From a bacterium (lineage in GTDB: Bacteria; Latescibacterota; Latescibacteria; Latescibacterales; Latescibacteraceae): a stretch of DNA of 64,000 nt. The stretch covers positions 5,768-69,767 of the forward strand of contig JAJFUH010000107.1 in the NCBI GenBank assembly GCA_021372535.1. The letters run 5' to 3'. The position numbers and the translations under genes are program-made. The notes beneath the pieces were generated by a model, which saw nothing but the letters and a program-made list of their open reading frames with translations, ran no database searches and was not told where the DNA came from. Position 1 is the stretch's first letter, and every line of letters starts with the position of its first letter. Positions 4,483 through 24,604 of the stretch are shown piece by piece.

Positions 4483-6327
4483 ATGGGTTTTTCAGCCGGA
4501 ATAAAGGGGAGGAAACGAGTGACTGCTCAAAAAAGTCTGTTATGCTGGGTAATTGTACTTCTGGGAATGTTTATGCTTTCGTGTTCGGAGGTTAAACCAC
4601 CGGTGAAAATTACCCAGTATACCGATCCGTCCAATATTGCAGGGCTTGCCGTTGATGGTAATATGGTTTATTGCGCTACTAAAGGCGGTCTTGTCAAATG
4701 GGATAAATCCGCGGGTGAATATACCCTTTTAACAACCGCCGATGGTCTGCCATCCAATATTCTTTCCGATGTGATAATCGACAAAGGGAAGAAGCTGTGG
4801 GTCAGCTCTATCCAGGGAGTTGGTGTATTTGACGGAAAAACATGGAAATGCTATGGAACATCGGAAGGACTTCCTTCCGGCGAAGTCAATGCCTTGAGCC
4901 TCGATAATAAAGGCGGAATATGGGCAGCAACGACAAAAGGCATGGCGAGCTTTGAGCGGGGACGTTTCAGGGTCTTCAAAGACAATGAAGGCCCTGTGGG
5001 GCTCGATATCCAGTGTATTTTCTTCGATAAAGGCGGCAACATCTGGGTCGGCACCGCTGAAAAAGGTGTATACACGAAAACCGACAAGGGCTGGCGCAGA
5101 ACCGGCTCGAAAAATGGCCTCACAACCGATGCGGCAAGCACCATCGCTCAGTCATGGGACAACAGTATCTGGGCTGCATCATGGGCCGGGATGTGTCGGT
5201 GGGACGGTTTTGGCTGGCAGGGCTTCAAGCCCATGTTGTGGCTCGGCACGTTCAAAGCCCGTAAACTTCAGGGTACACAGGAACGTTTATGGTATTTTAC
5301 GGCCAATGGGATTCATGCGGCCAAAGGAAGTGAGTGGCTGCATTATAACGAGGCGGACGGCCTGATTTCCAATGATGTTCTGAGCGGGATTGCGGTAACG
5401 GATGATCTGGTTTATGCCGGTACTTCATATGGCATGAGTGTCATCGAGAATTCTGCCATCGAAAATTATGTAATCCCGAATACCCCGTTCGGATATAACT
5501 GTATTTCTGTTACGGCCGATGACAAAGGTAGAATCTGGCTCGGAACATGGGAAACCGGTCTGAATGTCTATAATTCCGGTTCCTGGAGTCAGATAATGGG
5601 TGATAAACCCGAAACGCTGGCATCTGTACGGAGTATTATATTCGGCCCGGATGGCTCCATGGTGTTCAATACGACAAACGGCGTGGTTTTCAAGGATAAA
5701 CAGGGATGGAACATCCAGACCCGCAACGAGGGTCTGGCGGGTGATGATATACGGTGCGGGATTTATGATTCCGAGGGCAGATACTGGTGTGGAACATCGA
5801 CCGGCATAAGCTGTTTATCGCATGGAAACTGGGATCGGTATCGTGCCATTCACGGTCTGCCGTCCGAGGATATCTGGTCGTGCGCTCTAGATACGGAGGG
5901 TACGATCTGGTTCGGCACCACTGCCGGCATTGTCTCGCTCAAGGATAATGTGATAACCGACAGAACCCCGGAGATCGGTATGGATAGGCCTGATGTACGG
6001 TCGATTGCGGTGATAGGGGACACGGTTTATTTCGGTACGGAGAGCGGGAAAATCGTTACATACTCTAAGGGAATATGGGATGTGTACGGTAACAGGTTTT
6101 TGAATACCGATAAGGGCATTTACTCCATTGCTTCGGATCCTTCCGGCAGGTTATGGCTCGGTACCAACGGTGATGGTGTCATACGCATCGAAAACGATAA
6201 GGCATACAAATACACTCGTGAAGATGGCCTGCCGTCCAATTATGTCCGGTCGGTGATCTTTTCGGACGGCATTCTCTGGACAGCATGTCTCGGTGGAGCC
6301 GGAACAATCGAGCCGGTTGCACATTGA
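4483..6327 (+). CDS. Lipoprotein with two-component-regulator propeller (Reg_prop) beta-propeller repeats. It has no kinase or output domain.
   Basis: The signal peptide ends in the lipobox-like LSCS. Repeated G..W.GT..G.. modules are typical of Reg_prop/Y_Y_Y propellers. The true start may be an internal Met (MFMLSC...). Confidence 0.65.
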   Translation: MGFSAGIKGRKRVTAQKSLLCWVIVLLGMFMLSCSEVKPPVKITQYTDPSNIAGLAVDGNMVYCATKGGLVKWDKSAGEYTLLTTADGLPSNILSDVIIDKGKKLWVSSIQGVGVFDGKTWKCYGTSEGLPSGEVNALSLDNKGGIWAATTKGMASFERGRFRVFKDNEGPVGLDIQCIFFDKGGNIWVGTAEKGVYTKTDKGWRRTGSKNGLTTDAASTIAQSWDNSIWAASWAGMCRWDGFGWQGFKPMLWLGTFKARKLQGTQERLWYFTANGIHAAKGSEWLHYNEADGLISNDVLSGIAVTDDLVYAGTSYGMSVIENSAIENYVIPNTPFGYNCISVTADDKGRIWLGTWETGLNVYNSGSWSQIMGDKPETLASVRSIIFGPDGSMVFNTTNGVVFKDKQGWNIQTRNEGLAGDDIRCGIYDSEGRYWCGTSTGISCLSHGNWDRYRAIHGLPSEDIWSCALDTEGTIWFGTTAGIVSLKDNVITDRTPEIGMDRPDVRSIAVIGDTVYFGTESGKIVTYSKGIWDVYGNRFLNTDKGIYSIASDPSGRLWLGTNGDGVIRIENDKAYKYTREDGLPSNYVRSVIFSDGILWTACLGGAGTIEPVAH

Positions 6328-6367
6328 TGAAAAAACAGAAATTTACCGGGAGTACTGATAGAAATAC

Positions 6368-6397
6368 TTGACTTCGGTAAGATGATTTAATTATTTT
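6368..6397 (+). promoter_or_regulatory. Candidate sigma70-like promoter for tRNA-Gln (TTGACT-18-TATTTT)
   Basis: A -35/-10-like pair lies about 20 nt upstream of the tRNA 5' end. This rests on pattern only. Confidence 0.3.
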
Positions 6398-6419
6398 ACC
6401 CGCGATTAAAATTGAAGGT

Positions 6420-6493
6420 TGCCCCGTCGTCCAATGGCAAGACAGCTGACTCTGGATCAGCCTATCGAGGTTCAAATCCTTGCGGGGCAGCCA
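6420..6493 (+). tRNA. tRNA-Gln (anticodon CUG)
   Basis: I folded it by hand. The acceptor stem is TGCCCCG/CGGGGCA, with the U1:A72 pair typical of bacterial tRNA-Gln. The anticodon stem is GCTGA/TCAGC with loop CTCTGGA, giving anticodon CUG. The T-arm is GAGGTTCAAATCCTT (GAGG/CCTT). G73 and CCA are encoded. Confidence 0.85.
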
Positions 6494-6514
6494 TAATAAA
6501 ACGAGTATTACCAG

Positions 6515-6551
6515 CCACTTACAGGATATTATGTGAGTGGTTTTTTGTTTT
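6515..6551 (+). terminator. Rho-independent terminator downstream of tRNA-Gln
   Basis: The hairpin CCACTTACA...TGTGAGTGG is followed by TTTTTTGTTTTT. Confidence 0.6.
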
Positions 6552-6937
6552 TATATGCGTCTGGTACTACTTATAATACTACTCGGAAATAGGGGTATTT
6601 GTCAATTCTGAAGCTCGTTACATAGGTTACCCAGGATGATCGTTTACGGAAAGGACGTCAACGGACGTTCGTGTGACGTTTGACTGATATATCGATGGTT
6701 CACTTTGACCTTTTTTCACAATAATTTATTATTAATGAATTTATCTAAAATATCAAATGCCAACTTACTACACAAAATACCTATAATAAAGAAAAACTGA
6801 ATTTATTTCAACATAATCCGCAGGATATCGATTTTGTGATGAAACAATGCAAAAACTTTAAGTAATAAGCGAATAAGATGGGATTTTATAACATTGAAGA
6901 AATGACTATAAGGTATTGATTCTATAAGCTGTTTATC

Positions 6938-7010
6938 AATTGATCAATTTTGAGCAGATTTTCCTTGACTTTTAGCAATCAAGAAAGTAATATACACTCA
7001 ATTGATCAAA
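6938..7010 (+). promoter_or_regulatory. Candidate autoregulated promoter/operator of the BlaI-like repressor
   Basis: Palindromic AATTGATCAATT (6938–6949) and AATTGATCAA (7000–7009) boxes flank a TTGACT-17-TAATAT promoter (6965–6993). A TGATCA half-site lies at 7013–7018. Confidence 0.4.
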
Positions 7011-7039
7011 TATGATCAGTTCATTCGGAGAAAATAATT

Positions 7040-7435
7040 ATGAATAATAAAAACTTTCAACATTTTACAAAAGTAGAAATGGAATTCATGCAGATACTGT
7101 GGGATCACGGCGAACAATCACCTGAGGATATCAGGAGAATCTTAAAAGAGAATGGACGTGTACTGACTAACGGAGGAACAAGGAGAATTCTTTCAATTCT
7201 TTGCCGTAAAGGCCACATAACCCGAAGGAAAGAAGGAAGAAGTTACGTTTATAATCCAAACGTAAAGAAACAACAGGCATTCAAAGATATTCTTATTGAT
7301 CTCAGAAAACGGGTATTTGGTGATTCCGGTATAATAATGATTGCTGCGTTTCTTGACAGTTTCCATGCAAGTGATGATGAATTCAAAGAAATAAAACGTC
7401 TACTTGAGAATTATAAGAAGGATCGGGACAAGTGA
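7040..7435 (+). CDS. BlaI/MecI/CopY-family winged-helix transcriptional repressor
   Basis: The 131-aa protein has the penicillinase-repressor architecture. Its stop overlaps the start of a downstream M56-peptidase sensor, which is the canonical blaI–blaR1 pairing. The gene order is reversed relative to staphylococcal bla. Confidence 0.75.
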   Translation: MNNKNFQHFTKVEMEFMQILWDHGEQSPEDIRRILKENGRVLTNGGTRRILSILCRKGHITRRKEGRSYVYNPNVKKQQAFKDILIDLRKRVFGDSGIIMIAAFLDSFHASDDEFKEIKRLLENYKKDRDK

Positions 7436-10311
7436 CTTTATTTGAGATAGTGAATACTTTTAACAGGCTTGGTTTTTTAATATTCCGATATCTGGTGTCG
7501 TTTTTTTGGCAGTCTACTCTGTTTTTTGGAGCCGTACTTCTTGTTTTTATATTGTTTCGGAGGTTAAGCTCTTCAATAAAGCAGAGAATACTGTTTGTAT
7601 CTCTGTGCGCGATACCCCTTATTCCTTTAGTTTCGAAAACCGTCATAGATATAGGGGTGCCATATATAAGAATACCCGTGATACCCACATATTTTCCCCA
7701 GTCTGTGGTTTTTGACCGGATTATTCAGCCAACAGTAACTGAAAACCCTCTTGTTATCGGCGAATCAACCCGCCAGATCAATCCTGTTTACAAAAATACC
7801 ACTCTATCGAAATCAAACAGCCTCACATATGGCAGAATTATACTGTCTCACCCATGGATGTTCGTACTGTTAATATATATGGCAGTTCTGATATTGTTTC
7901 TTAAAAGAATAACGGCCAAATGGGTGGCTTTAAGGGCCTTGGCAGATTCCAGTACATATGATCTTGATCCGGAAACCAATCATATAGTACAGGAGGCATC
8001 TTCAAAAATAAAATGCAACCAGTCTTTCAGGGTTGTTGAGAACGAAGACATCGTATCTCCCATGGTTTTTGGCATTATAAAACCTGTTATCGTTATACCA
8101 AAAAGTGAAAAGTGGAATTTCTCAAGGTCTGATATGTATTTGATGTTTCTCCATGAGATTACTCATATAAAGAGAAAGGATCAACTTGTTTTCCTGATTG
8201 TCTCGATAATCAGAGCATTCTTCTTTTTCCATCCAGTCATCTGGATTGTTGCATGGCAACTTTTATTGTTGGCAGAGAAGTCTTGCGATGATTCGGTTCT
8301 CGATATACAGGAAAACCCCATCTCATACGCGTCGTTGTTGATTAAAATCATGGAAAATGCCAGAAATCAATCATTTAGTTTAAATGTCGCAGCAAATCTT
8401 GGTTTCCCGAAAAGTATGTTTTATAAAAGGATTATTTCTCTGCTCCTTGAGCACAAACACCATCAAAGAAAATATTCAATATTTGCAATAACTGCCTTTT
8501 TCGCCCTGCTGATCTCATCATATATCGTCACTGCCGCAATCCCACTGTCAGAATCGTTAAAAACATTGATCAACTCTAACAATTTAATGTCGAGATTTCT
8601 GATTTCGGAAAACATTGGTGTGAGAAATCAAATCCAGTATAATGCAACGGCTTATGCTGTCCCCCTTTATGGAATAACAATTGACGGTCGACTTGAAGAT
8701 TGGCCCCCAAACATGACACGGTATCCGATTCTGAATTATGGCAAAACATATGGCCCTACTGATATTGATTACGAAGATTTGAGTAAAAGCAGTGACCTGA
8801 GCCCACATTTCATGGTTGGCTACAATCCCGATAAAAACCTGCTCTACCTGGCTGTCATCGTTCGAGACGATATCATGTTTTCATTCAGTGAACATGCCAC
8901 CCTTTCGTTATTCGACTATCCCGATGCATGTGAAATCTATCTTTCGGGTAAGAAAAAGAACTCGATAATATCCATGAATGAAACCTTGACTGCAAATGAA
9001 TTGCCTGTTTTACAGTATGTAATGACCGCTTCAGGAATAATCTATAATAAAAATGTACCGAATACCGACATATCGAGGAACCCGATTCTTGTTATGGGTG
9101 ATATTACAAAGACAAAAACGCACGCGGTCAGCTCCAGGACTGGCGATGTCACCGTATATGAGTGGGAACTGGAGGTCTTTGATAAATACCCGGATAACAA
9201 AACACAGCTTATACCGGGTAAAACCATCGGCTTCGATGTTGCCGTTGTCGACAGGGATCATGAAGATGAATTCTCGGCATGGGGATGTTGGGGACCCTCC
9301 GGATATTTGAAAGTTGCAAATACATATCTGATAGGAGATATAGTCCTTTTAAGAGACAACAACAATTTTGGTTCTGTCACCGGCACCGTGGTCAATTCTC
9401 AAACCGGTCAGGGGATTTTCAAACAGATTATCGATGTTTACCGGCAGGGGAAACCAATTACCTGGACCATGAGTGATTCTGATGGAAAGTTTGGGATGCA
9501 GTTACCGGAAGGTCAATATGTCTTGAAACCACGCTATCATGATAAAGGGCATGAAATTGCCTTAACGGTAAAATCCGGCGAGTCGACGACAACGGACGTC
9601 ATGCTGGATATTACGAAAATTCCCGAAAAACTGCTGGAAACCATTAAACTGTATTCAAATCTATCCAGTTATTCCGATGTCACAGAAGTTAACGCTGTTA
9701 TGGGAATCCAGAATACAAAGATTGAATTCGCATTTAAAAATCCAAATTTTATGTATCAGAGTTATACAAGGATTGAAAACGGAGATAAATGTATAATATC
9801 ATGTGATGGAAGTAAAATGAGGGTAAATCGCGAGAATTCAGAAGAGTTCCTGGAAAAGAAAGCTCCCGGCGAACTCAGCGTATTTACAATCAGCTCGCTG
9901 ACAAACCAGCCTAGTGGCGGTTTTGTGCACCAGCTGATGCTATGCAGGGAACCGCTCAAACAACTGAATGAAGATCTCATCAGTGTTCGGTACCTCAGTT
10001 CCGACAGAATCGATGGTGTTGAATCTGACATTTTTGAGATAAACATGCGGGCGGGGACATTCACTACCTCGACTCGCTGGACACCGGATTATACAATCGT
10101 GTACCGTCTCTGGATAGGGAAACGGGATAAGGTAATCCGCAAAGTTGTGACAGAAATGGAGGAACGGCTGGATATTGCAAAAGCATCGGAAGATAATATG
10201 GTAACGAAAGTGAGACACTACTCCGTAACACATCGTCACCGCAAAATCAAACTCAATCCGAAGCTTATGGATACGTTATTCAAAGATAATCACAACCGTG
10301 TGGCAATATAG
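7432..10311 (+). CDS. BlaR1-like M56 peptidase signal transducer with a large C-terminal extracytoplasmic sensor region (CBM9/DOMON-like, carboxypeptidase-regulatory-like and LolA-like modules)
   Basis: N-terminal TM helices are followed by the HExxH motif FLHEITHIKRKD, typical of M56 BlaR1. A further ~650 aa follow. The DDSVEI/EFSAWG-type motifs resemble CBM9-like sugar-binding domains. There is no penicillin-binding domain. Confidence 0.7.
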   Translation: MTLFEIVNTFNRLGFLIFRYLVSFFWQSTLFFGAVLLVFILFRRLSSSIKQRILFVSLCAIPLIPLVSKTVIDIGVPYIRIPVIPTYFPQSVVFDRIIQPTVTENPLVIGESTRQINPVYKNTTLSKSNSLTYGRIILSHPWMFVLLIYMAVLILFLKRITAKWVALRALADSSTYDLDPETNHIVQEASSKIKCNQSFRVVENEDIVSPMVFGIIKPVIVIPKSEKWNFSRSDMYLMFLHEITHIKRKDQLVFLIVSIIRAFFFFHPVIWIVAWQLLLLAEKSCDDSVLDIQENPISYASLLIKIMENARNQSFSLNVAANLGFPKSMFYKRIISLLLEHKHHQRKYSIFAITAFFALLISSYIVTAAIPLSESLKTLINSNNLMSRFLISENIGVRNQIQYNATAYAVPLYGITIDGRLEDWPPNMTRYPILNYGKTYGPTDIDYEDLSKSSDLSPHFMVGYNPDKNLLYLAVIVRDDIMFSFSEHATLSLFDYPDACEIYLSGKKKNSIISMNETLTANELPVLQYVMTASGIIYNKNVPNTDISRNPILVMGDITKTKTHAVSSRTGDVTVYEWELEVFDKYPDNKTQLIPGKTIGFDVAVVDRDHEDEFSAWGCWGPSGYLKVANTYLIGDIVLLRDNNNFGSVTGTVVNSQTGQGIFKQIIDVYRQGKPITWTMSDSDGKFGMQLPEGQYVLKPRYHDKGHEIALTVKSGESTTTDVMLDITKIPEKLLETIKLYSNLSSYSDVTEVNAVMGIQNTKIEFAFKNPNFMYQSYTRIENGDKCIISCDGSKMRVNRENSEEFLEKKAPGELSVFTISSLTNQPSGGFVHQLMLCREPLKQLNEDLISVRYLSSDRIDGVESDIFEINMRAGTFTTSTRWTPDYTIVYRLWIGKRDKVIRKVVTEMEERLDIAKASEDNMVTKVRHYSVTHRHRKIKLNPKLMDTLFKDNHNRVAI

Positions 10312-10873
10312 TCATAAAAAACAAATATATATTGTTTTTTATGTTCTTATGGCAGTCTTGCTGTTTGCATGCAATAATATCATGATTTTATAATTCGGCA
10401 GAAAACAGGCTTCATACATCATTCTCAGGATTCGATGTAACAAATCGCTGTAATGTTTCATCAAAGTGGTGAAATTGTATGTAATCGGTATTAAATACGC
10501 CCCAAAGTGATCAATATTGATCATTTCAAAAGAAACTATTATAAGGATTAAAAAAGTTCCATTCAATCATCTTTAAAGAGGCTTTATCACCTCATGAAAG
10601 AATGGAGAGTCAGCTTGTTCCGTATGAACGTACATAGTGAAAAATCATTCTTTAGCAATCTTGTTGAATTCTGGAGACACGTATTTCGAGATTCAGATTC
10701 GTTGACGGGCGACAATTACTTGGTCAGCAAAGACGAATACGAAGAAATTGAACTGTTGTTTCGCAGCCCCGGTAAAGAACGTACGAGTGGTATAGAGAAT
10801 GAATAACCTGGATTTAAACATTGAAAAGAATTCCGGGCCATAAAATGTATAATGAAAAAAGGAGGTATCTGCC

Positions 10874-11965
10874 GTGAAAAAAAATCTGAAAATGGAATTT
10901 CTGCTCTTATTAGTTATTCTCCTCGTTTTTGCGTGTCTGTCCTTGCCGGTTTCCGGCGAAAATCATGATTATCAGAACGGTGTAAATCCTCAACGTAACG
11001 TACTTGTGGAAGCATTCACGGGTTCATGGTGTAGAAATTGCACAGTAGATATATTGACTGTTGAAAGGTATGTAAGAACGCATAGTAATATCTTTATGCT
11101 GGCGTATCATTTCAATGATCAGATGGCCACAGAAGATATCGAGGTGGTTATTTTCAGATTTACTGACGCATTTCCAGGTTTTGCTGTGGACAGGACTGTT
11201 TATAAAGACCTTAATTCCCTTGTTGCGAGAATGAACAACTGTGCTCAAAAAATTGAGGAGAGGTTATTGATTCCGCCCCGAATGACAATCGATCTGAGTT
11301 ATACGTATTCTCCTGAATCAAGACTGATCGATCTCGATGTCGCTCTTCATACCCTTGAGACAATCGATGCGAATTGTTATCTCCATATCGTTGTTGCTGA
11401 GGACAGCCTTAAATATCCGCAGCAAGGGGGAGCCGATCCATTCTACCACATGCATACCGTGCGCGACTTTATAACGGGAACAGACGGCGAACGGCTTAAC
11501 GATTCTGTACTCGCGGAGGGAACCGATATTCACAGGAATTATGCATACACACTGCAAAGCAAATTCAAACCTGAGAAAATCCGCATCGTTGTATTTGTCA
11601 GCGAAGGAATCGTGGGACCGGTGTGCCAGGCCGAGGAGCTGGTTCTCGTCGAGAACATCGTGACCAGGGTCGATGAATTGACCCCGGATACGTTCCGGGT
11701 GCACGCACCCTATCCTAATCCTTTCAATCCCGTAACAACGATCGAGTTTACTCTTCCCTCGGAATCGCATGTCAGCCTTGTAATGTATGATGTGCTGGGA
11801 AGAGTCGTCGATATTCCCGTTGATCGAACCTTGAGTACCGGGACACACCGGATCGTATGGGACGGCCGCGACAGAAAGGGTATCACGCTTGCTGATGGAC
11901 TGTATCTGTTCCGGCTTACTGCCGGAAATCATATAGCTCATGGGAAAGTGACACTTCTCAGATGA
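10874..11965 (+). CDS. Secreted T9SS cargo protein with an N-terminal CxxC thioredoxin-like (Omp28-related) domain and a C-terminal Por secretion sorting domain
   Basis: It has a signal peptide and the motif EAFTGSWCRNC. The C-terminus (YPNPFNPVTTIEF...GLYLFRLTAG...KVTLLR) matches the T9SS type-A CTD (TIGR04183-like). It is a paralog of 14323..16074 (shared YHMHxVRxxITGTxGERLN). Confidence 0.7.
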   Translation: MKKNLKMEFLLLLVILLVFACLSLPVSGENHDYQNGVNPQRNVLVEAFTGSWCRNCTVDILTVERYVRTHSNIFMLAYHFNDQMATEDIEVVIFRFTDAFPGFAVDRTVYKDLNSLVARMNNCAQKIEERLLIPPRMTIDLSYTYSPESRLIDLDVALHTLETIDANCYLHIVVAEDSLKYPQQGGADPFYHMHTVRDFITGTDGERLNDSVLAEGTDIHRNYAYTLQSKFKPEKIRIVVFVSEGIVGPVCQAEELVLVENIVTRVDELTPDTFRVHAPYPNPFNPVTTIEFTLPSESHVSLVMYDVLGRVVDIPVDRTLSTGTHRIVWDGRDRKGITLADGLYLFRLTAGNHIAHGKVTLLR

Positions 11966-12066
11966 TTGGTAAAAAAAACTTTTCGATTATGGTTTATGAA
12001 TACCATGAGATATTCCGGAATAAATCCATCAATCGGCATAGACAATTTCCACCAAAGGAGAGAGAG

Positions 12067-14238
12067 ATGAGAACTTCAAGGCTGATTTTTATGGCGATCA
12101 TGATTATAACTGTATCACAAGCTCTGGCGCAGGGAACGTGGACGCAATACCCGATAAGAATTGAAAAAATACAAGATATTGTGGTAAAAGACGGCGAATT
12201 ATGGTGTTCTTCGGAACGTAGAGTTTTTACGGTAAATCCATCGACAATGGAGTATAATGAGATTTTTAATGCTGGTTCTGATTATACAGGTGAAATTGAA
12301 AAGAGCACTACAGGTGATGTTTTAGTTGGCCTTGCCACAAAACAGTTCGTGTTTAAAAACGGTACATGGAAAAAAATCCAATATTCAGAACCCAATTCCG
12401 ATATCAGATATCCTGGAGCAGAATACTATGTACCATTTTGTTATGACCCTGACGGGATATGCTGGATGGCGGGCCATGGGATCGGGTTGATTCGTTTTGA
12501 CGGAGAGAAATATTCCAAAGTACCGGATGTTGAGTTTCTCCCGGATGATCGGGTAAAATCAATATTTGCCGGAAGTGATGGCAGAATATGGATCGGTACT
12601 AAAATAGGATTATATTGCTACGACAGAGAATCCGTGGAAAAACTGAGTTATAGCAAGGATAATCCTGAATATCGTGTTAAATGCATAGCGGAGGGATCGG
12701 ATGGTTCAATCTGGATAGGTACTCTGGATGATGGTATATTTAATTACAAAGACGGCTCGTGGAGCCACTATATTCCGGAGAGCAACGGAATTAAATATTT
12801 TGGCACCGGCTCATTACTCGTGGATGATACAGGGAACCTCTGGGCTTCATTAGTTCCTGTGAACTTTGAATGTAATAATCCTAATTCAACGCTTTTTAAG
12901 TTCGACGGTGAAACCTGGTATTCCTACCCCGATCCTGTTACCGCTAAATTAGTGGTGAAGTCATTAACACTCGCTCCTGACGGCACTATATGGGCAGGGA
13001 CGTACAATCAGATTTCTGATAAAGATGCCGGTATACTGCAATTTGACGGCAAAAAGTGGACAAATCACTTCTACAGTGAATTCATACCTCGTAACTTATA
13101 TATATATGGTCTCTTATACCACGATGGTTCATTACTACTGGCAACTGAAAACGAAGGATTATACCAGTATGATGGTACATCGTGGTCACACATCGTAAGC
13201 CCGTTTACCGATGCCAGGTCTGTCGCTGTTTCATCCGATAACAAAATATGGGTAGCAACAAAAGAAAAGCTTTACCGAAATGATGATTCATCATGGAAAC
13301 CTTTTACTTCAAACATGCTGACCGATAATAATATAATAAATCAAATCGCTGTCGGTTCCGATGGAATCGTATGGTGTATGACAAAGAACGGCCTTGTGCG
13401 TTTTGATGGTTCCGTCTGGAAATTGCAGGGTGAGAGCGACGGTATTCCCGATGGGGTCCTTTCAACTATTGCGGCTGATCCTTCCGGCCATATCTGGTTA
13501 GCCTGGTATACTTTTATATCCGATGAATTAATAAGTGGTATTACTGTTTATGATGGTGAAAAATGGACGGAAACGGGAATACCGGATAATTCGAAAGCGT
13601 CCACGGCTATCAATAAAATCATTTTCGGTCCCGAAGGTGAACCCTGGGCCGTCAGCTATAATGAACTTTTCAGATATGACGGTGCAAAATGGGTGAAAGA
13701 ACCGTATGAGTACCGGCAAATAATGGATATCACCTGTGATTCGGAAGGATATCTCTATATAAGAAATGAGATGGGAGTTGACTGTTATAATGGTGAAAGT
13801 AGAATGACCTATATCACTGGCATAGATGTCCCGAATTTGTCCTTTCTGGCAGCAGGTGATAAAGGTATGGTTTTTGGCGTGATGAGAGACGGTGTTTTCG
13901 CGCGGTTCGATCCTTACCGGATTCCAACGGTCGTCGATGAACCATATATAACAACTCCCGGTACATTCCCGATTGTTGGCAATTATCCGAATCCGTTCAA
14001 TATGTCGACAACCGTCTATTTCGAGCTGCCGTCGGAAACGCTGGTCGATCTTGCGATATTCTCAGTTACGGGACAGAAGATACGGACGCTGGTTTCCGAA
14101 CGGAAGAATCCCGGCAGGCATGTAATCGTATGGGACGGTCGCGATGATTTTGGCCGGAACGTATCTTCCGGCATCTATATAAGCCGTCTGCTCGGGGGAG
14201 AACTTACCGCATCATCACGCATGATGTTGTTAAAGTAG
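12067..14238 (+). CDS. Secreted Reg_prop beta-propeller repeat protein with a T9SS C-terminal sorting domain
   Basis: The ORF track gives 11962..14238. The likely start is the Met at 12067 (MRTSRLIFMAIMII..., signal peptide). It has many DG.IW.GT..GL repeats. The CTD is YPNPFNMSTTVYFELP...GIYISRL. Confidence 0.7.
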   Translation: MRTSRLIFMAIMIITVSQALAQGTWTQYPIRIEKIQDIVVKDGELWCSSERRVFTVNPSTMEYNEIFNAGSDYTGEIEKSTTGDVLVGLATKQFVFKNGTWKKIQYSEPNSDIRYPGAEYYVPFCYDPDGICWMAGHGIGLIRFDGEKYSKVPDVEFLPDDRVKSIFAGSDGRIWIGTKIGLYCYDRESVEKLSYSKDNPEYRVKCIAEGSDGSIWIGTLDDGIFNYKDGSWSHYIPESNGIKYFGTGSLLVDDTGNLWASLVPVNFECNNPNSTLFKFDGETWYSYPDPVTAKLVVKSLTLAPDGTIWAGTYNQISDKDAGILQFDGKKWTNHFYSEFIPRNLYIYGLLYHDGSLLLATENEGLYQYDGTSWSHIVSPFTDARSVAVSSDNKIWVATKEKLYRNDDSSWKPFTSNMLTDNNIINQIAVGSDGIVWCMTKNGLVRFDGSVWKLQGESDGIPDGVLSTIAADPSGHIWLAWYTFISDELISGITVYDGEKWTETGIPDNSKASTAINKIIFGPEGEPWAVSYNELFRYDGAKWVKEPYEYRQIMDITCDSEGYLYIRNEMGVDCYNGESRMTYITGIDVPNLSFLAAGDKGMVFGVMRDGVFARFDPYRIPTVVDEPYITTPGTFPIVGNYPNPFNMSTTVYFELPSETLVDLAIFSVTGQKIRTLVSERKNPGRHVIVWDGRDDFGRNVSSGIYISRLLGGELTASSRMMLLK

Positions 14239-14322
14239 ATTGATACGTATGAAATAACAACCGTTCGTCTTTGCAGGATGGACGGTTGTTGATTTTCAGC
14301 CGCGAAGTGACCGTAAAGAGAT

Positions 14323-16074
14323 ATGAACCTTATCGAAAAGGCATCTGTCGTGAAATCAGAGTCGTATACCATGTTTTTCATATATACGCTGGTGTTTTTA
14401 ATAGCTTTGTTTCATGCCGGGACAGCGGTTTCGGGCGATAACTACGAACCGAATGATTCGAGAGAAACGGCATACGAAATATCTTTTTCCGATGGTGTAT
14501 GGAAATCCGAAACGGCAACGATCGACACCCGGGAAGATGCCGACTGGTATTCGTTTTACGGGGAAAGCGATAGTTTCATTTCTATTTCATCCGATCCCAT
14601 TACAAAGTTCGACATTGCTTTTTCTCTCTATTACGGCGATTCAAGACTCACCTGCGCCGACAATTATTTCAGCGGTATGGCTGAAAAAATCGTAAAATAT
14701 CCGCTTGGTAAGGACGGGATATACTATATATGTGTCGGAACTCCCGAATCGACAAAAAAGAGAACCACTACCGATACGGATTCGTTCGGCTCGTATTCAC
14801 TCGAAATAACACTGTATAAAAGTCATACCATTTCCGGAAAAGTAACTGATTCACAAACGGGAAACGCGATATCGTCGGCACGGATCACTGTCGAACATGA
14901 TACCTCATATACAGCCGAGACAGATGTCGATGGAATGTTTGAAGTTATCCTGAAAGGAGCCCTCTCAGGCGAACCATTTGCCATACAGGTTCAAAAAACC
15001 GGCTATATTGCCGAGATTGCCAAAGGGATTGTATCAAATGCAAAGGAAACTGCCGTATCGATAGAACTCGCCCCACTTCCGGACAATTCCCGCAATGTCC
15101 TCCTTGAAGAATTCACCGCAACCTGGTGCACGTGGTGCCCGTATGCTACCGATATACTTGAAGAGATAATCCGCAGCCAGGGCAATGTTATCTCCATTGC
15201 GTACCACATTGAAGATGAAATGAGCACACCCGAAGGAGATCAGCTTGACGATATGTTAAGTCCGGCGCTTCCTCAGGCATTGATCGACAGGACACAATTC
15301 ACTGGAAGCAGTTCCATCCTGGTCAATCGTCAGGAATGGACAAAGCGATGCATCGAACGCTCACAGGTGCCGGCTCCTCTTTCGATCCATATTTCATGCG
15401 ATTATACAGGCTCGTCACGAAATGCTGATGTGACCGTTGACATGCTTTCCCTTTCCGATATGAAGGGAGCGTACAGGATCAATGTGGTTGTCTGCGAAGA
15501 CAGCCTTGATTATGAGCAGCATATCACCGGAAAAGACTATAAAACGATTTCTCCTTACTACCATATGCATGTCGTTCGCCGGATGATTACGGGAACATAT
15601 GGCGAACGGTTAAATACCGATCCGATTCAGGCGCAGACAAATATCCGGAAATACTATTCGTTCACGCTCGATGATTCGATTAATGAAAACTACGCTCGTC
15701 TTGTGGTATTCGTCAATGAAGATTTAAAAAACGGCCTGGGACCAGTGCAGCAGGCTGCACAGTGTACTATTATGGAAGACACGATAACGGAAGTCGAAAT
15801 CGACGAGCGAATCGCCTTTCAGATTCATCCGGCATTCCCGAATCCATTCAATACTACAACGATGATTCCATTCACTCTGACACAGGATAAACACATAGTG
15901 CTGACTGTTTATAACATTGTTGGAGAAAAAGTAACGACACTGACCGACCGTATCTGGCCACCGGGTAAGCATTCCATAATTTGGGATGCTCATGGATTTT
16001 CCAGCGGAATATATTTTTACCGGCTACAGGCGGGTGCGTCGATAGGCACGGGGAAAATGCTGCTGATCAAGTGA
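14323..16074 (+). CDS. Secreted multidomain T9SS cargo protein with PPC-like, carboxypeptidase-regulatory-like and CxxC thioredoxin-like (Omp28-related) domains plus the T9SS CTD
   Basis: It has the EPNDSRETAYEI PPC-type motif, a CxxC motif (EEFTATWCTWCPYA), and the CTD FPNPFNTTTMIPFTL...GIYFYRLQAG. The start may be the Met at 14371. Confidence 0.65.
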   Translation: MNLIEKASVVKSESYTMFFIYTLVFLIALFHAGTAVSGDNYEPNDSRETAYEISFSDGVWKSETATIDTREDADWYSFYGESDSFISISSDPITKFDIAFSLYYGDSRLTCADNYFSGMAEKIVKYPLGKDGIYYICVGTPESTKKRTTTDTDSFGSYSLEITLYKSHTISGKVTDSQTGNAISSARITVEHDTSYTAETDVDGMFEVILKGALSGEPFAIQVQKTGYIAEIAKGIVSNAKETAVSIELAPLPDNSRNVLLEEFTATWCTWCPYATDILEEIIRSQGNVISIAYHIEDEMSTPEGDQLDDMLSPALPQALIDRTQFTGSSSILVNRQEWTKRCIERSQVPAPLSIHISCDYTGSSRNADVTVDMLSLSDMKGAYRINVVVCEDSLDYEQHITGKDYKTISPYYHMHVVRRMITGTYGERLNTDPIQAQTNIRKYYSFTLDDSINENYARLVVFVNEDLKNGLGPVQQAAQCTIMEDTITEVEIDERIAFQIHPAFPNPFNTTTMIPFTLTQDKHIVLTVYNIVGEKVTTLTDRIWPPGKHSIIWDAHGFSSGIYFYRLQAGASIGTGKMLLIK

Positions 16075-16089
16075 AAGCATGGAGAAACA

Positions 16090-16611
16090 GTGATGAACAA
16101 GTATAAATCGTTTGCAACGGTATTCGTTATCTCGTTTTGTTTTTTTGTTCTGCCATATTCTCGATCGTATGCCCGGTCACCTGTCATACCTTTCTCATTC
16201 AAAACGTTGACAAACGAAATCATGCCTGTTGATTCCCTTCTTCAGAAAGGACCGGTACTGATAACATTCTGGGCAATGTGGTGCAAACCGTGCAAGGAAG
16301 AACTGCATGCGCTCAGCAAGGTACATTCCGAGTATCCTTTTGATTCCATTACGATAGTATCCGTGACAATCGATACTCCGCGAAGCATAGACCGTGTCAA
16401 ATCCTATGTTAAAACTCACAATTTCCCTTTTATATGCAGTACCGATCCCGGTAAAGAAATACTGAGAATCTTCAACGTTTCAGGGATTCCCTTTACGGTG
16501 ATTCTCAATAAAAAGCGGGAAGTGATCATGATGCATTCCGGATATGTCCCCGGTGATCTGGACGAATATGGAAAAAAAATCGAAAGCTGTCTGAAAACAG
16601 GAAAAGAATGA
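16090..16611 (+). CDS. TlpA/ResA-like periplasmic thiol:disulfide oxidoreductase (thioredoxin fold)
   Basis: It has a signal peptide and the WAMWCKPC active-site motif, with the size of TlpA-like thioredoxins. Its stop overlaps the start of the next gene. Confidence 0.75.
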   Translation: MMNKYKSFATVFVISFCFFVLPYSRSYARSPVIPFSFKTLTNEIMPVDSLLQKGPVLITFWAMWCKPCKEELHALSKVHSEYPFDSITIVSVTIDTPRSIDRVKSYVKTHNFPFICSTDPGKEILRIFNVSGIPFTVILNKKREVIMMHSGYVPGDLDEYGKKIESCLKTGKE

Positions 16612-18215
16612 ACAATATCGAGAAATACATAATAACGCTTCTTCTTTTTACAATCATACCGGTTCGTGCGTTCGCTTCACTGCCTTCCGTATCCGTCTCG
16701 AACTATTTCCGCTACGGTTTTGGCAACGAGATCATGAATTATAGAAATGAGGACAAGAAATATCTTGAAGAAAAAATCGCTGTTAATATTCACTGGAACC
16801 GTTTTCTGCTCGGCGGACGATATGATTATGACAATCCACCGGAATTTGGTTTTGAACATAGAAAACTGAGAAAATGGTATCTTGAATACAGGAAGGGACA
16901 ATGGAAACTCAGGGGAGGCACGTTCGCGGCCCTTTTTTCAAGGGGTCTGGTTTTAAACGCATACGAAGAGGAAATGATCGGTCATGACAGCGAAATTACC
17001 GGCGTAAACGCGCTGTATGAAAACGAACGCACAACGGTAAATATACTTGCCGGAAGCATGGATTATGAGATGATTCCGGATTTCAGGGATATCGTAACCT
17101 ATAACCTGCGCGGCGGTTCGATACGGAAAAAACTCATCGATTGGTACGCTGTCGGAGGCAGTTTCATACGGAGCGACCTGACCCAGAAAATCGGATATTA
17201 TAAGGTTAAGGACAAATTTTACGTAAATACAGCGGAGTTATGGTCGGAGATTGAAACAGACAATTTCAAGTTGTATGGCGGTATGGCATCAAACTCCCAT
17301 GAAAACAGAGGTCTTTTCACAGAGGGTGAAAACAGCGTATATGTTTCGCTCAACATGAATCTGCCCTCCACAAATGTCAACATTGAGTTCAAAAACTATA
17401 AATTCGGATTGACAACTCCTGAATATTGGGATTACACCCTGTATCGTCACCGGATGCTCGCATTTCAGAATCCTCCCACAGTAGTAAGAGAACACAGCTG
17501 GGTGCTGCTTTCACGACGCACACACAGTGTCAGTTTCAATGATGAGGTCGGTATGCAGTTCGACCTCTATCACAGACTATACCCTGAAACTACGCTCAAC
17601 CTTAACGGATCCGTTGCCGGAAAGCATTACCGGTATGATATGAATGAGTTCGGGGATTTTTCACGCAGAAAAAAGAATTTATCGTGGATACCGTCGCTCG
17701 ATCCCGAATATTCTCCGTTCTGGCAGGTATATGGTGAAGTTGAACACTACTTCCCGAATGGCAGTTCCATTACTGGTGGATTAGCCTATACGTTTGAGAG
17801 GATTTACAACTACTATATACCGGATGTCAGGGAGGAAAACAGGTCGTGTATCATACCCGTCCGGTTTATCTTTCAGCTGCCCGACTTGTATTCGTTACAG
17901 GGCACGGTAGAATATCAGAAATTTAAGGAAACCCTTCACGGCGACCAGTATTTTACCAACAGTTACTTTTCGTTTGGGATAGGCAAATCGCCTTACCTGA
18001 CAGCGGCAGTCGATGCTGAATATGTCACGAAAGGGTACGAGTATGATGATAAAACGCTGTGGTTGATTGGTACAATTCGTTATTGTTTCCGTTCGAGCCA
18101 GATTTTTGAAATAGGATATGGCGAGACACGAGGTGGACTTGTCTGCACGAACGGACGGTGCCGTTATGTTCCGGAATACAAGGGTTGGCGCTTTTCCGCC
18201 GAGATTCACTTCTGA
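16608..18215 (+). CDS. Putative outer-membrane beta-barrel protein of unknown function
   Basis: It has a signal peptide, alternating amphipathic segments rich in Y/G/F, and a C-terminal Phe (…AEIHF), as is typical of OMP barrels. It is the last gene of the T9SS-cargo/thioredoxin operon. Confidence 0.5.
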   Translation: MNNIEKYIITLLLFTIIPVRAFASLPSVSVSNYFRYGFGNEIMNYRNEDKKYLEEKIAVNIHWNRFLLGGRYDYDNPPEFGFEHRKLRKWYLEYRKGQWKLRGGTFAALFSRGLVLNAYEEEMIGHDSEITGVNALYENERTTVNILAGSMDYEMIPDFRDIVTYNLRGGSIRKKLIDWYAVGGSFIRSDLTQKIGYYKVKDKFYVNTAELWSEIETDNFKLYGGMASNSHENRGLFTEGENSVYVSLNMNLPSTNVNIEFKNYKFGLTTPEYWDYTLYRHRMLAFQNPPTVVREHSWVLLSRRTHSVSFNDEVGMQFDLYHRLYPETTLNLNGSVAGKHYRYDMNEFGDFSRRKKNLSWIPSLDPEYSPFWQVYGEVEHYFPNGSSITGGLAYTFERIYNYYIPDVREENRSCIIPVRFIFQLPDLYSLQGTVEYQKFKETLHGDQYFTNSYFSFGIGKSPYLTAAVDAEYVTKGYEYDDKTLWLIGTIRYCFRSSQIFEIGYGETRGGLVCTNGRCRYVPEYKGWRFSAEIHF

Positions 18216-18270
18216 ACCGAAATGAATTCGAATAAGAGAATAAATAGTTATCTTTATTATTGTGTCAGTT

Positions 18271-18405
18271 TGTGTTAGAAATGGTAGAATATAAAGGCAA
18301 TGGTGTGAATAGTAAACTTAGATATAATTTTTATAAGTGCAGAGGCCATGTAGCATTAGATTGTTTATTAATGATTTACGATTATTTATTGAATCCCCTT
18401 AAAAT
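18271..18405 (+). repeat. Conserved AT-rich island-end sequence, copy A. It is homologous to 59012..59167.
   Basis: I aligned it by hand to the segment preceding the partial tRNA-Ala. The identity is about 75–80% (by eye) over roughly 135–150 bp (tgtgtcagtttgtgttagaaatggt...ataagtgcagaggccatgtagcattag... versus gtgtgccagtttgtgccagaaatggtg...ataaatgcagaggccatgacgtattag...). Confidence 0.8.
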
Positions 18406-18406
18406 G

Positions 18407-18453
18407 TGACTCTGGATCAGCCTATCGAGGTTCAAATCCTTGCGGGGCAGCCA
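18407..18453 (+). repeat. Direct repeat of the tRNA-Gln 3' half (from the anticodon stem to CCA). It is a candidate attR.
   Basis: Its 47 nt are identical to 6447..6493. The downstream ~60 bp, including a terminator hairpin, are about 85% identical to the sequence downstream of the intact tRNA-Gln. Confidence 0.9.
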
Positions 18454-18474
18454 TAATAAAACAAATATTATCTG

Positions 18475-18507
18475 CCGCTTGCAGGGTGTTTTGCAAGTGG
18501 TTTTTTT
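18475..18507 (+). terminator. Rho-independent terminator (a repeat-associated copy)
   Basis: The hairpin CCGCTTGCA...TGCAAGTGG is followed by TTTTTTT. It is homologous to the terminator at 6515..6551. Confidence 0.6.
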
Positions 18508-18945
18508 ATACTATTCCTTATTTCTTTTTATTAATTTCAGTAGTACTATCTGATTGTACATTAATTAGTAGAATCAAAAAGAATAAAAGCATACATCTGG
18601 CCTGAACTGTTTATACCTTTTTAGGTCCTTAAAGTCCGCTGCATTTGTATCTCTGTGTTCCCCGAAAAGATTCCCTTCATGAATCTGATAGAATGTCCTT
18701 CATAATCTCATGGTAGATATCTGTTTATCTTTTTTGCTGCCGCCGGAACATCCCATTTAAATTTTTTATTTTTTCCTCAATATTTTAAACGATAAATAAT
18801 AAAAATGCTTGACAATATATATTAAAGTGGTAGATTTGTTACCAATGTGGTGATGTAGCTACTTATATGGTATTCAACTAATAAAATTTGTAGAATTTCT
18901 GATATTAATAAATTAAATTCAACATTTATAAGGAGTTGAAAAGAT

Positions 18946-19620
18946 ATGAATTCATGTGTGCGAGTTTTTTTATTTCTGACCATCATGTGTAGTGTATTGA
19001 TTGTATCTGTCCATGCAGATGATCAACCTATTATAAATTTACAAGAAGGTAGAAATGAGATTTCCTTTTCAATCAAGAACGGATGGGATTATGATCTCAG
19101 TGGCCTTAAATTGGAGGTTAATGAGGAAAAGATTCCTTCATGGCTGAAGATAACAGTGTTGAAAAATGAAATAAATATTCCGCAGAAAATGAGTGGGAAT
19201 ATAACATTGAACTTCAACATCAGTCATGCTCCGGATGGTTCCATAGCTGAGATTCCTTTTATTATAGTCGATAGTAATAATAACCAATGGAGTTATTACC
19301 TTAAAATTGGTGTAAGTTCAAATGAAAATTCAGCGCCTCACCCCATAGATATTCTCTATGGTAACTTTCCCAATCCATTTAATCCATCTACGACTATCAC
19401 GTATTCGCTTGCAGAAACAAGATTGACGAAGCTTGTAATCTATAATTCACTCGGCCAAAAAGTTAAAACGTTACTTAATGAATCACAGGAAGCAGGAATA
19501 CATACCATTCAATGGGACGGACGGAATGAGTTCGGGCAGAAAGTTTCGAGCGGTATCTACCTCTATCAATTAATATCGGGTTCATTTATTGAAAGCAATC
19601 GCATGATTCTATTGGAATAA
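18946..19620 (+). CDS. Small secreted protein with a T9SS C-terminal sorting domain
   Basis: It has a signal peptide and the CTD FPNPFNPSTTITYSL...GIYLYQLISG...MILLE. Confidence 0.65.
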   Translation: MNSCVRVFLFLTIMCSVLIVSVHADDQPIINLQEGRNEISFSIKNGWDYDLSGLKLEVNEEKIPSWLKITVLKNEINIPQKMSGNITLNFNISHAPDGSIAEIPFIIVDSNNNQWSYYLKIGVSSNENSAPHPIDILYGNFPNPFNPSTTITYSLAETRLTKLVIYNSLGQKVKTLLNESQEAGIHTIQWDGRNEFGQKVSSGIYLYQLISGSFIESNRMILLE

Positions 19621-19636
19621 CAATAAGAGGGAGAAC

Positions 19637-21109
19637 ATGAAAAAGATTATAGGTTTTATGTGTCTGGCATGTATTTGTTTTATGCCCCGAGCCGGGTATG
19701 GTATAGATTTTTATAATACCGTATTTGTTGATGGCAAGGCTTCGATTAACGTGGATGGGGATTTATCCGACTGGGATGTTGTGAGTTTGCAACTGATACC
19801 GTTAGGCTATTATGAAAACTTGTCACAATCCCTTCCTCTGCCACAAAAAGATGATCTTTCGGCTTCTTTTAAATGCTTTGCAGATGAAGATTATGTATAT
19901 GTTGGAGTAATTGTTAATGATGATAAAGTATTTCTTGGTAATCACCCGTTTGGTGAAGGTTGGAATGATGACTCAGTAGAAATCTGTTTTGACAGTGATT
20001 TGAGCAATGTTTCAAAACCATATTTTGATAATAATGACGGACAGGTTCGGGTTATTGGCAATTATGATGGAAGTTCATACCTGGAAGGCGTTGTACCATA
20101 TCTTTACATTTCACAGCTGCCATACTATTGGGAAGCCCGAGGTATTCGAGGGGGCTTTAAACTCAACGACAGGGGCTATTCAGTTGAAGTGGCAATTCCA
20201 CTTGAAGTTCTGGAGTTGAACAAGATTACGCCACAACGTGGTCTCGGGGTAAATATCAGAGTGCTTGAAGATGATCATGAAGAAAACAATGATGAGAATG
20301 AGGGTGTTCTTTCATGGTCTTTTGATCCTGACAAAACGAGCTGGTGGAAGACAGATCGCTACAACAGAGTTGTTTTTGTTAAGGCTGTGACTTTGCCCGG
20401 TGTTGTACAGGAAAAATCACAAGCTTCAGTAAAAGGTATTAAAAATAATGCGTGGGAAGTCGAGTTAGGACTCAATGCCCCCGATAAGATAGGTTTTAAC
20501 AACATTCTGATATCCGCCTTTTCGGACATCGCAAACAGCAACTGGAAAATGGCTGAAGAAAAACTCAAACCCTTGCAAGACAGGCTATGGGCACAACTTA
20601 TAGTGGGTGTAGTTCAGTTTCATGATGAAAGGTATGCGGAAGCTATTACTCAGTTGAATGATTTTGCAAAGAAGTGTCCTGATGATTATGCAGCGACATG
20701 GGCATATGATTTTTCATACAATTTTGCGAGAGAATTGATGTTGTCGAAAGAACTGTTTGAACGTTTTCAAAAAAGGGAAAATGGCAAAGGAGCCCTCATA
20801 CTCCATGAATATTTAAAACAAAATCCGGGCGATCCAAAATCGTGTGAGCTTCTTTCATTTGCATTGAGCAAAACAAAGGGAAGTGATGTTGACTTCATAG
20901 CGATTCAAAAGGTCATTAGCGAGCCGGTCAACCAGGAAATCACTAAACAAGCTCAGATAGCTCTTGCCCGTTACTATTTTATAAATAACAAATTTGACAA
21001 TGCTCAGGCTATTTGTACAAATTTACTGAGCTCTGAGCTCAATTCGACGGAAGCGCTGAATACAAAAATGATTCTCCTTTCGATCGAGAGAAAATTAAGC
21101 CAAAAATAG
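19637..21109 (+). CDS. Secreted protein with an N-terminal CBM9/DOMON-like sugar-binding domain and a C-terminal helical (TPR-like) region
   Basis: It has a signal peptide. The DGDLSDWD...DDSVEICFD motifs resemble family-9 carbohydrate-binding modules. Confidence 0.45.
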   Translation: MKKIIGFMCLACICFMPRAGYGIDFYNTVFVDGKASINVDGDLSDWDVVSLQLIPLGYYENLSQSLPLPQKDDLSASFKCFADEDYVYVGVIVNDDKVFLGNHPFGEGWNDDSVEICFDSDLSNVSKPYFDNNDGQVRVIGNYDGSSYLEGVVPYLYISQLPYYWEARGIRGGFKLNDRGYSVEVAIPLEVLELNKITPQRGLGVNIRVLEDDHEENNDENEGVLSWSFDPDKTSWWKTDRYNRVVFVKAVTLPGVVQEKSQASVKGIKNNAWEVELGLNAPDKIGFNNILISAFSDIANSNWKMAEEKLKPLQDRLWAQLIVGVVQFHDERYAEAITQLNDFAKKCPDDYAATWAYDFSYNFARELMLSKELFERFQKRENGKGALILHEYLKQNPGDPKSCELLSFALSKTKGSDVDFIAIQKVISEPVNQEITKQAQIALARYYFINNKFDNAQAICTNLLSSELNSTEALNTKMILLSIERKLSQK

Positions 21110-21151
21110 CTGGAATAAATTTAATTTTCGAAAACATAAAGGATTTCACCT

Positions 21152-22561: not shown

Positions 22562-22578
22562 TTTGGAATGATATATTC

Positions 22579-22740: not shown

Positions 22741-22834
22741 GTTTGAAAGTTGGATTGTAAGCGGATGCATAATAGTGTTAATTTAATATGGTATTTTGTA
22801 TAATATAACTTAAAACATAAATATAGGAGCAATC

Positions 22835-24601: not shown

Positions 24602-24604
24602 ACT

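Follow-up and report, generated by a model that had tools for sequence, protein, structure and literature searches.

A probable decayed integrative-element remnant between a tRNA-Gln(CTG) gene and its displaced 3′ copy in Latescibacterota

The 64-kb stretch of Latescibacterota DNA analyzed here (the window) carries an intact tRNA-Gln(CTG) gene and, about 12 kb downstream, a displaced copy of the 3′ part of the same gene. The DNA between the two, positions 6494–18406, is probably a decayed remnant of an integrative element, resembling a cis-mobilizable element (CIME), that recombined with tRNA-Gln(CTG) at the anticodon loop by means of a tyrosine integrase. A second interval, at a tRNA-Ala(GGC) gene (45571–59216), would be a sister remnant of the same element family. 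The features that define the tRNA-Gln interval are as follows.

6420–6493, + strand: intact tRNA-Gln(CTG), the presumed integration target on the attL side (ARAGORN; Rfam tRNA, 54 bits)
6447–6546, + strand: left repeat copy, a 56-nt exact block (6447–6502) followed by a homeologous terminator region (repeat finder)
6513–6552, + strand: intrinsic terminator T1, 3′ of tRNA-Gln (hairpin of −15.5 kcal/mol, z = −3.8)
18407–18506, + strand: right repeat copy (putative attR), the displaced tRNA-Gln 3′ fragment with terminator T2 (repeat finder)

A single direct repeat stands out: 6447–6546 and 18407–18506 match at 89 of 100 nt, and the matches are unevenly distributed. The first 56 nt are identical: 47 of them are tRNA sequence, beginning with the final 3 nt of the anticodon stem's 5′ arm and ending at CCA, and 9 nt follow; beyond this block, 33 of 44 positions (75%) are identical. 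The split in mismatches (0/56 against 11/44; Fisher p = 5e-5) is far from uniform, and the repeat is thus an identity block joined to a homeologous arm rather than an evenly decayed duplication. A first-pass annotation, made from the sequence alone, had described the intact tRNA-Gln at 6420–6493, on which ARAGORN and Rfam agree, and an exact 47-nt copy of its 3′ half to CCA, which is present and remains exact to 56 nt. The duplicated terminator region that it reported is also there, with different dimensions: the stretch shared after the tRNA is 53 nt long and 79% identical (42/53), not about 60 bp at about 85%. The hairpin of T2 (−16.3 kcal/mol) carries compensatory substitutions relative to T1, and both terminators are strong hairpins followed by T-runs, with the two longest stems among the terminator-like sites in 6200–19200.

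The window contains exactly two occurrences of a 25-nt core of the repeat, and shuffled sequences contain none. That the partial tRNA copy might belong to a dispersed tRNA-derived repeat, a possibility raised in the same annotation, can be ruled out: the window holds only two copies, and the tRNA sequence is found once per related tRNA-Gln(CTG) locus. A 16-nt match to the tRNA tail at 60560–60575 (− strand) lies inside a coding sequence, does not extend further, and was judged to be due to chance. Rfam, run over 6000–27500 at E ≤ 1, detected tRNA and nothing else.

The displaced fragment starts with TGA-CTCTGGA-TCA, an inverted repeat around a 7-nt loop, and sequence identity begins 3 nt before the anticodon loop both in this fragment and in that of tRNA-Ala(GGC). 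Islander recognizes three sublocations of crossover, the anticodon loop, the T loop, and the T/acceptor junction, and both fragments begin at one of them. The interval also shares with Islander tRNA islands an intact tRNA gene and, on the same replicon and in the same orientation, a displaced fragment of its 3′ part, the start at the anticodon stem-loop, and a typical size (PMC4383910). Elements with anticodon-centered attP form the commonest crossover class, with 2083 of 3919 Islander islands (PMC4383910); tRNA islands of this class are the subject of Williams 2002 (PMC100330), as cited in PMC4383910. The Islander filter further demands an integrase gene inside the interval (PMC4383910), and here 6494–18406 differs from such islands in having none.

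This absence was established by Pfam searches of all large open reading frames (ORFs), by tblastn with recombinases from related loci, and by Pfam searches of the longest stop-to-stop segments in the larger noncoding gaps. Pfam found no recombinase, transposase, relaxase, or phage domain in 6494–27000 or in the other large ORFs tested across the window. Queried with the tyrosine integrase of related locus L011, the serine recombinases of L003 and L013, and excisionase-like proteins, tblastn returned no integrase or excisionase remnant. The translated larger noncoding gaps, of which the largest is about 730 bp, gave no Pfam match, and the spacer at 6547–7039 holds no integrase remnant by tblastn or Pfam. 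The earlier statement that no tyrosine or serine recombinase lies between the repeats is hence confirmed by all three approaches, and the hidden Markov model search for integrase and excisionase domains that the annotation had proposed, run with Pfam, came back empty.

Other element classes leave equally little trace. By Pfam, the interval contains no phage structural, replication, or packaging genes, as sought for a prophage or phage satellite, and no integrase, relaxase, type IV secretion system, or origin-of-transfer (oriT) module domains, as sought for an integrative and conjugative element (ICE) or an integrative and mobilizable element (IME). IMG/VR yielded no match to the tRNA pattern or to the arm motifs described below, and only integrases of ≤33% identity. 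The interval does retain both an attL and an attR, with the 56-nt exact core at both ends and the arm with repeat motifs on the attR side only, and it lacks the genes that a CIME has lost, which would have been present earlier. Among the three options that the first-pass annotation had left standing, a decayed element fits best, possibly one still usable in trans, and nothing calls for a noncanonical element.

We compared the window with loci from related genomes (L001–L041; about 9.5–10 kb of downstream sequence was available in L001, L002, and L037). The Reg_prop protein that flanks the tRNA gene (4483–6327) is 100% identical to LLG96_09750, and its orthologs are Latescibacterota proteins of ≤63% identity. 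The order of Reg_prop gene, then tRNA-Gln(CTG), is kept in L001, L002, L003, L005, L011, L013, and L037, whereas the DNA after tRNA-Gln(CTG) differs in every related genome compared. In L011, it begins with a PF00589 tyrosine integrase gene on the opposite strand, behind which lies an HTH_17 excisionase-like gene; the two genes are arranged alike in L041, whose integrase is 82% identical to that of L011. A large serine recombinase abuts the tRNA gene in L003, a serine recombinase fragment and HTH proteins follow it in L013, and several insertion sequence (IS) transposases do so in L037. DUF4238 and RNase_T genes occupy this position in L001, and ordinary-looking genes in L002 and L030; the contigs of L005, L028, and L038 end at or just past tRNA-Gln. 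Because the upstream neighbor is kept while the downstream content varies and includes several recombinase types, tRNA-Gln(CTG) is a multi-recombinase integration hotspot in Latescibacterota. No att duplicates were found in the related loci within the roughly 10 kb available. The serine recombinase ORF of L003 (6736–8363; Resolvase, Recombinase, and Zn_ribbon_recom domains), which lies on the opposite strand, runs into the tRNA-Gln gene, and its last ~20 codons are the reverse complement of the tRNA.

A further line of evidence comes from the right-hand end of the interval, which has a homologous counterpart at the tRNA-Ala(GGC) gene.

18241–18406, + strand: conserved element arm, putative P arm of attR (homologous to 59000–59167)
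18260–18277, + strand: tandem TTGTGTCAG-N-TTGTGTTA motif, candidate integrase arm-type site (pattern scan)
45571–45647, + strand: tRNA-Ala(GGC), presumed target of the second interval (ARAGORN)
45648–59167, + strand: second integrase-less interval, 13.5 kb, with OprB porin, methyl-accepting chemotaxis protein, 2273-aa PAS hybrid kinase, and sigma-54 activator (Pfam)
59168–59216, + strand: displaced tRNA-Ala 3′ fragment, 42 of 49 nt identical to the gene (E = 1.7e-6)

The tRNA-Ala fragment lies 13.6 kb downstream of its gene and, like the Gln fragment, opens with TGA of the anticodon stem, the loop coming next. Compensatory changes distinguish its T stem from that of the gene (GTCGG/CCGAC against GCGAG/CTCGC), and the fragment thus derives from a different tRNA-Ala allele. 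Pfam identified no integrase among the genes of this interval, whose GC content at third codon positions (GC3) of 0.44–0.55 differs marginally from that of the non-island genes of the window (p = 0.04). At 50306–57127 within it lies the gene of the 2273-aa hybrid histidine kinase, in which about ten PAS domains and one GAF domain are recognized; the sigma-54 activator gene comes next.

Just inside both right-hand repeats, the two intervals share an arm of about 125–165 nt, which on the Ala side comprises the last ~147 nt (59021–59167). Positions 18261–18382 and 59021–59143 are 76.4% identical over 123 nt (E = 3e-19), and the alignment continues to the core. No other copy of the arm was found in the window or in 40 related loci (L001–L040), and the sequences to the right of the intact tRNA-Gln and tRNA-Ala genes are unrelated to each other. 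Each arm contains tandem repeats with the spacing of one helical turn, TTGTGTCAG-T-TTGTGTTAG in the Gln arm and GTGTGCCAG-T-TTGTGCCAG in the Ala arm. Allowing ≤3 mismatches, the tandem pattern has three matches in the window against 0.10 expected, and all three fall in the Gln and Ala right ends. Among 41 loci, only L011 and L041 contain the exact form TGTGTCAG-N-TTGTGT, and each has it in the stretch that separates tRNA-Gln from the stop codon of its tyrosine integrase gene. The L011/L041 elements, compared at their tRNA-proximal end alone, thus have in common with the window the target tRNA and a tandem TTGTGTCAG-N-TTGTGT motif near the core; they differ in that the motif is on the attL side and abuts the integrase gene, whereas in the window it is on the attR side with no integrase. 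The anticodon stems of tRNA-Gln and tRNA-Ala are both xCTGA/TCAGx, so one integrase family could use both tRNAs, given a matching loop on the element. Two other roles for the arm were considered and set aside: the consensus fold of arm and fragment as one RNA is weak and not convincing (−17.7 kcal/mol over 271 columns from two sequences), and as coding sequence, a minus-strand ATG opens ORFs of 24 and 9 aa that are not conserved.

The attL/attR reading of the repeat, already proposed in the first-pass annotation, gains support from the hotspot in relatives, the anticodon crossover class, the tRNA-Ala sister pair, and the integrase-linked motif. The same evidence bears on an artifactual origin, in which a contig chimera was joined through shared tRNA sequence. 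The window comes from a metagenome-assembled genome (MAG), its GC content varies strongly along its length, and the contigs of relatives often break at tRNA-Gln, as in the three named above; all of this would be in keeping with a chimera. At the right junction, however, non-tRNA DNA is joined to a 5′-truncated tRNA, which joining by shared sequence cannot produce. With only 56 nt, the exact repeat would fit inside a sequencing read of typical length, and the same layout, homologous arm included, is found again at another tRNA 40 kb away. We consider a chimera highly improbable.

These data suggest the following course of events. A circular element of the L011/L041 integrase family would have recombined with tRNA-Gln at the anticodon loop. 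Its attP would have combined a P arm with arm-type sites, the core, the 3′ half of a tRNA carried by the element (anticodon stem through CCA), and a terminator-like tail. Integration would then have regenerated an intact tRNA at the left junction and moved the arm, core, and fragment to the right junction, with the 12 kb in between arriving as cargo. The int/xis module, which adjoins the tRNA in L011 and L041, and a left-side arm would since have been lost, the module presumably by deletion. Such a remnant would be unable to move alone; it would need a related integrase in trans, and even this would serve only if one-armed att sites suffice.

A different account of the missing integrase is that the intervals are functional cassettes, mobilizable islands that never encoded one. 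The arm would recruit an integrase of the L011/L041 type from a co-resident element, and ordinary operons would in this way be moved between tRNA loci. Both intervals lack an integrase yet keep the homologous arm and the tandem motif beside the core, the Gln core repeats are still identical at 56 of 56 positions, and CIMEs and integrase-less ssrA islands are documented as mobilizable in cis or in trans (PMC5704250, PMC3146451). Set against this, the attL sides have no arm motif, no integrase is seen in 64 kb, and the Ala fragment has already diverged by 14% from its tRNA. Moreover, such a group would have two members only, as L001–L040 and viral contigs hold no copy of the arm. We judge this account doubtful. 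The broader proposition is a similarly long shot, namely that Latescibacterota hold a family of cassettes, each with an arm but no integrase, that enter more than one kind of tRNA gene (Gln-CTG, Ala-GGC) at the anticodon loop, borrow an L011/L041-family tyrosine integrase in trans, and relocate ordinary operons for envelope stress, secretion, and signaling within and between genomes.

Composition sets the presumed remnant apart from the DNA upstream of it, and the contrast extends beyond its right end. The interval 6494–18406 has a GC content of 41.6% against 50.1% in 1–6419; the first-pass annotation had correctly reported a lower GC content than upstream, with values (37% against 55%) that overstate the difference, and GC content stays low as far as about 27 kb. 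The segment that adjoins the right repeat on its far side, here called segment B, is described by the following entry.

18507–27000, + strand: segment B, with type IX secretion system (T9SS) cargo, CBM9/TPR protein, C39-DUF1573 protein, second BlaI/BlaR1 pair, and histidine kinase (Pfam, GC content)

Within it, 18507–26990 has a GC content of 35.9%, and a rise to 54% comes only at about 27 kb. Per-gene GC3 is 0.32–0.50 in the Gln interval, 0.30–0.37 in segment B, and 0.65–0.73 in the eight genes that come first after 27 kb. The median for the interval genes is 0.45, against 0.60 for the non-island genes of the window (Mann–Whitney p = 8e-4), and both the Gln interval and segment B depart from the non-island genes, as they do from one another. 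Because low GC and GC3 continue past the right repeat into segment B, the displaced tRNA fragment marks the border between two atypical segments, not between island and core. Although outside the repeats, segment B has the most atypical composition in the window and may represent either an island of greater age or a variable region; it holds no recombinase and, at its right end, no distal att copy, and no third att copy was found near 27 kb. Also encoded there are a Cys-rich 117-aa ORF (24605–24958) and a 335-aa secreted protein with no Pfam match. The SH3_6 gene at 27054–28523 was considered as a conserved right anchor and rejected as an unreliable ortholog, its L002 counterpart being only 27% identical. 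In the loci of the closest relatives (L001, L003, and L034), overall GC content is about 39–41%, core genes included, whereas the core genes of the window have 50–57%; the low GC content of the island thus matches that of these lineages, which are possible donors.

The genes between the repeats are all on the + strand and were assigned with Pfam. They bear out the cargo described in the first-pass annotation, a blaI/blaR1-like pair and an operon of T9SS cargo and thioredoxin genes.

6547–7039, no strand assigned: AT-rich noncoding spacer, 30.6% GC, with two palindrome-bearing 22-nt repeats inside
7040–7435, + strand: BlaI-like repressor (PF03965, 4e-21)
7432–10311, + strand: BlaR1-like M56 sensor-protease with a long C-terminal extension (PF05569, 5e-31)
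10874–11965, + strand: Omp28-like CxxC protein with a T9SS C-terminal sorting domain (PF11551, PF13860, PF18962; 55% aa identity to the syntenic L034 gene)
11962–14238, + strand: beta-propeller (Reg_prop) T9SS cargo protein (57% identity to L034)
14323–16074, + strand: second Omp28-like CxxC T9SS cargo protein, paralog of 10874–11965 (DNA repeats D2 and D5; 59% to L034)
16090–16611, + strand: thioredoxin/AhpC-TSA-like protein (67% identity to L034)
16608–18215, + strand: DUF6029 protein, the last cargo gene (PF19494, 1e-28; 71% identity to L034)

Across 7040–18215, T9SS sorting domains were detected in both Omp28-like proteins and in the beta-propeller protein. The five-gene cargo operon is fully syntenic in L034 (55–71% aa identity), a locus in which no tRNA gene was detected. 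L034 and L001 originate from one sample, and the core genes of L001 share 61–71% aa identity with those of the window. A related, rearranged cluster with a BlaI/BlaR1 pair is present in L035/L037, an 898-kb contig, about 290 kb from the tRNA-Gln locus. In L039 and L040, a thioredoxin–DUF6029 core is located among housekeeping or glycoside-hydrolase genes, with an Omp28-like gene added in L039, and the DUF6029 homologs of L035, L039, and L040 all stand in core chromosomal contexts. Given this synteny, these core contexts, and a divergence like that of core genes, the cargo cluster appears to be an ordinary Latescibacterota module, native to the phylum and now located between att repeats, rather than alien DNA.

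Several of these observations weigh against the interpretation as an element remnant. Neither interval holds genes typical of mobile elements, and the attL sides carry no arm motif. Beyond attR, composition is even further from the norm than in the island itself, and no distal att copy is found there. The cargo operon, with its syntenic copy in L034 and related clusters in L035, L039, and L040, looks vertically evolving, having diverged from L034 about as much as core genes have. The terminators of L002, L005, and L037 are closer to T1 than to T2, and a GGTRCTAY motif after T1 is common to L002, L030, and L037; this counts against the reading since the simplest model predicts the opposite polarity, with T2 the native terminator. 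Neither an intact relative carrying this cargo nor a close relative in which the site is empty turned up in the collections, where the nearest genome is ~61–63% identical (aa) in the flanking gene. The exact 44-nt tRNA pattern had no match in genome contigs and none in metagenome contigs, and a degenerate pattern matched six short metagenome contigs, none with two copies. Finally, the source of the sequence is a MAG contig.

The GGTRCTAY motif, usually in two copies 11–12 nt apart after the tRNA-Gln terminator, is located at 6553–6585 in the window, 12200–12215 in L002, ~10340–10370 (− strand) in L030, and ~12010–12035 in L037; it may be a regulatory site native to these genomes, or else belong to a widespread element arm. 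The tRNA-Gln terminator itself is unusually conserved for intergenic DNA at ~50% protein identity.

Several of the points just listed would be explained by a history in which only the ~165-nt arm and the tRNA fragment derive from an element and the 12 kb in between are native chromosome. An element would have entered a second, distal tRNA-Gln copy (or have been moved by rearrangement), and a later deletion, extending as far as the arm, would have taken away the regenerated tRNA together with the whole body of the element, with the same sequence of events at tRNA-Ala. The lack of any mobile-element gene in either interval agrees with such scars, as do the core contexts and core-like divergence of the cargo operon, the resemblance of T1 and its following motif to the native downstream sequence of L002, L030, and L037, and the marginal compositional difference of the tRNA-Ala interval (GC3 p = 0.04). 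The price is the assumption of ancestral duplicates of both the tRNA-Gln(CTG) and the tRNA-Ala(GGC) gene and of two independent deletions, each ending just outside the arm. No second tRNA-Gln is present in the ~9.5–10 kb of downstream sequence of L001, L002, and L037, and the genes of the 12 kb have a GC3 significantly below that of non-island genes. By comparison, the standard rule that an intact tRNA and a same-orientation 3′ fragment bound an island fits without extra assumptions (PMC4383910). We therefore consider scars of this kind unlikely and favor the decayed, CIME-like remnant.

CIMEs are bounded by attL and attR, derive from ICEs or IMEs, and may be mobilized in cis after accretion with an incoming element (PMC5704250). 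The ICESt1-related CIMEs of Streptococcus thermophilus (PMC5704250) resemble the Gln island in that attL and attR bound them at a target gene's 3′ end, genes for integration and transfer are lacking, and an atypical segment lies alongside, as in tandem accretion. In contrast, the Gln island is found in Latescibacterota and has the anticodon loop of tRNA-Gln as its target; it has no known parent ICE or IME of the same cargo, its conserved arm is on the attR side only, and any mobilization of it is hypothetical.

The nearest described parallel is the ssrA hotspot of Dehalococcoides, where islands with a reverse-strand recombinase next to attL occur beside 15 without an integration module, which were proposed to be CIME-like (PMC3146451). 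Both systems use a small-RNA gene as hotspot, have 3′-end direct repeats, include integrase-less islands, and carry cargo that is metabolic or sensory, not phage-like. The ssrA islands have a CcrB-like serine recombinase, a 20-bp repeat, and tmRNA as target, whereas the Gln island has a repeat of 56–100 nt from the anticodon stem and a link to a tyrosine recombinase family. Serine recombinases, the type found at the ssrA islands, also use tRNA-Gln in L003 and L013.

The Gln island introduces no new principle, since Firmicutes and Dehalococcoides provide well-documented examples of decayed islands between att sites. What the analysis adds is the probable tRNA-Ala sister remnant, the shared arm with integrase-linked repeats, and a cargo that appears to be a relocated native operon. 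A limited literature search on genomic islands found no described mobile elements in Latescibacterota; its sole hit concerned magnetosome gene clusters of a phototrophic bacterium. The window illustrates how gene clusters may be shuffled in this uncultured phylum, in which one element family would have left at least two integrase-less remnants within a single 64-kb stretch. Integrase-dependent tools such as Islander would overlook these islands, and the combination of shared arm and tRNA fragment offers a search handle for them in Latescibacterota MAGs.

Some features of the cargo genes may also be recorded. The two 22-nt repeats of the spacer (6936–6957 and 6998–7019) are 86% identical, lie 62 nt apart just upstream of the BlaI-like gene, and each contain the palindrome TCAATTGATCAA; they are possibly BlaI operators. 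The Omp28-like proteins encoded at 10874–11965 and 14323–16074 both have a WCxxC motif and share patches of ~75% DNA identity (D2, D5), which suggests that they are in situ paralogs. The Omp28-like pair, thioredoxin, and DUF6029 form a module kept across Latescibacterota and Ignavibacteria-like genomes. In L035, a bAvd/23S_rRNA_IVP-like gene (3896–4270) is located between the BlaR1-like gene and two propeller T9SS proteins and hints at an accessory gene of a diversity-generating retroelement.

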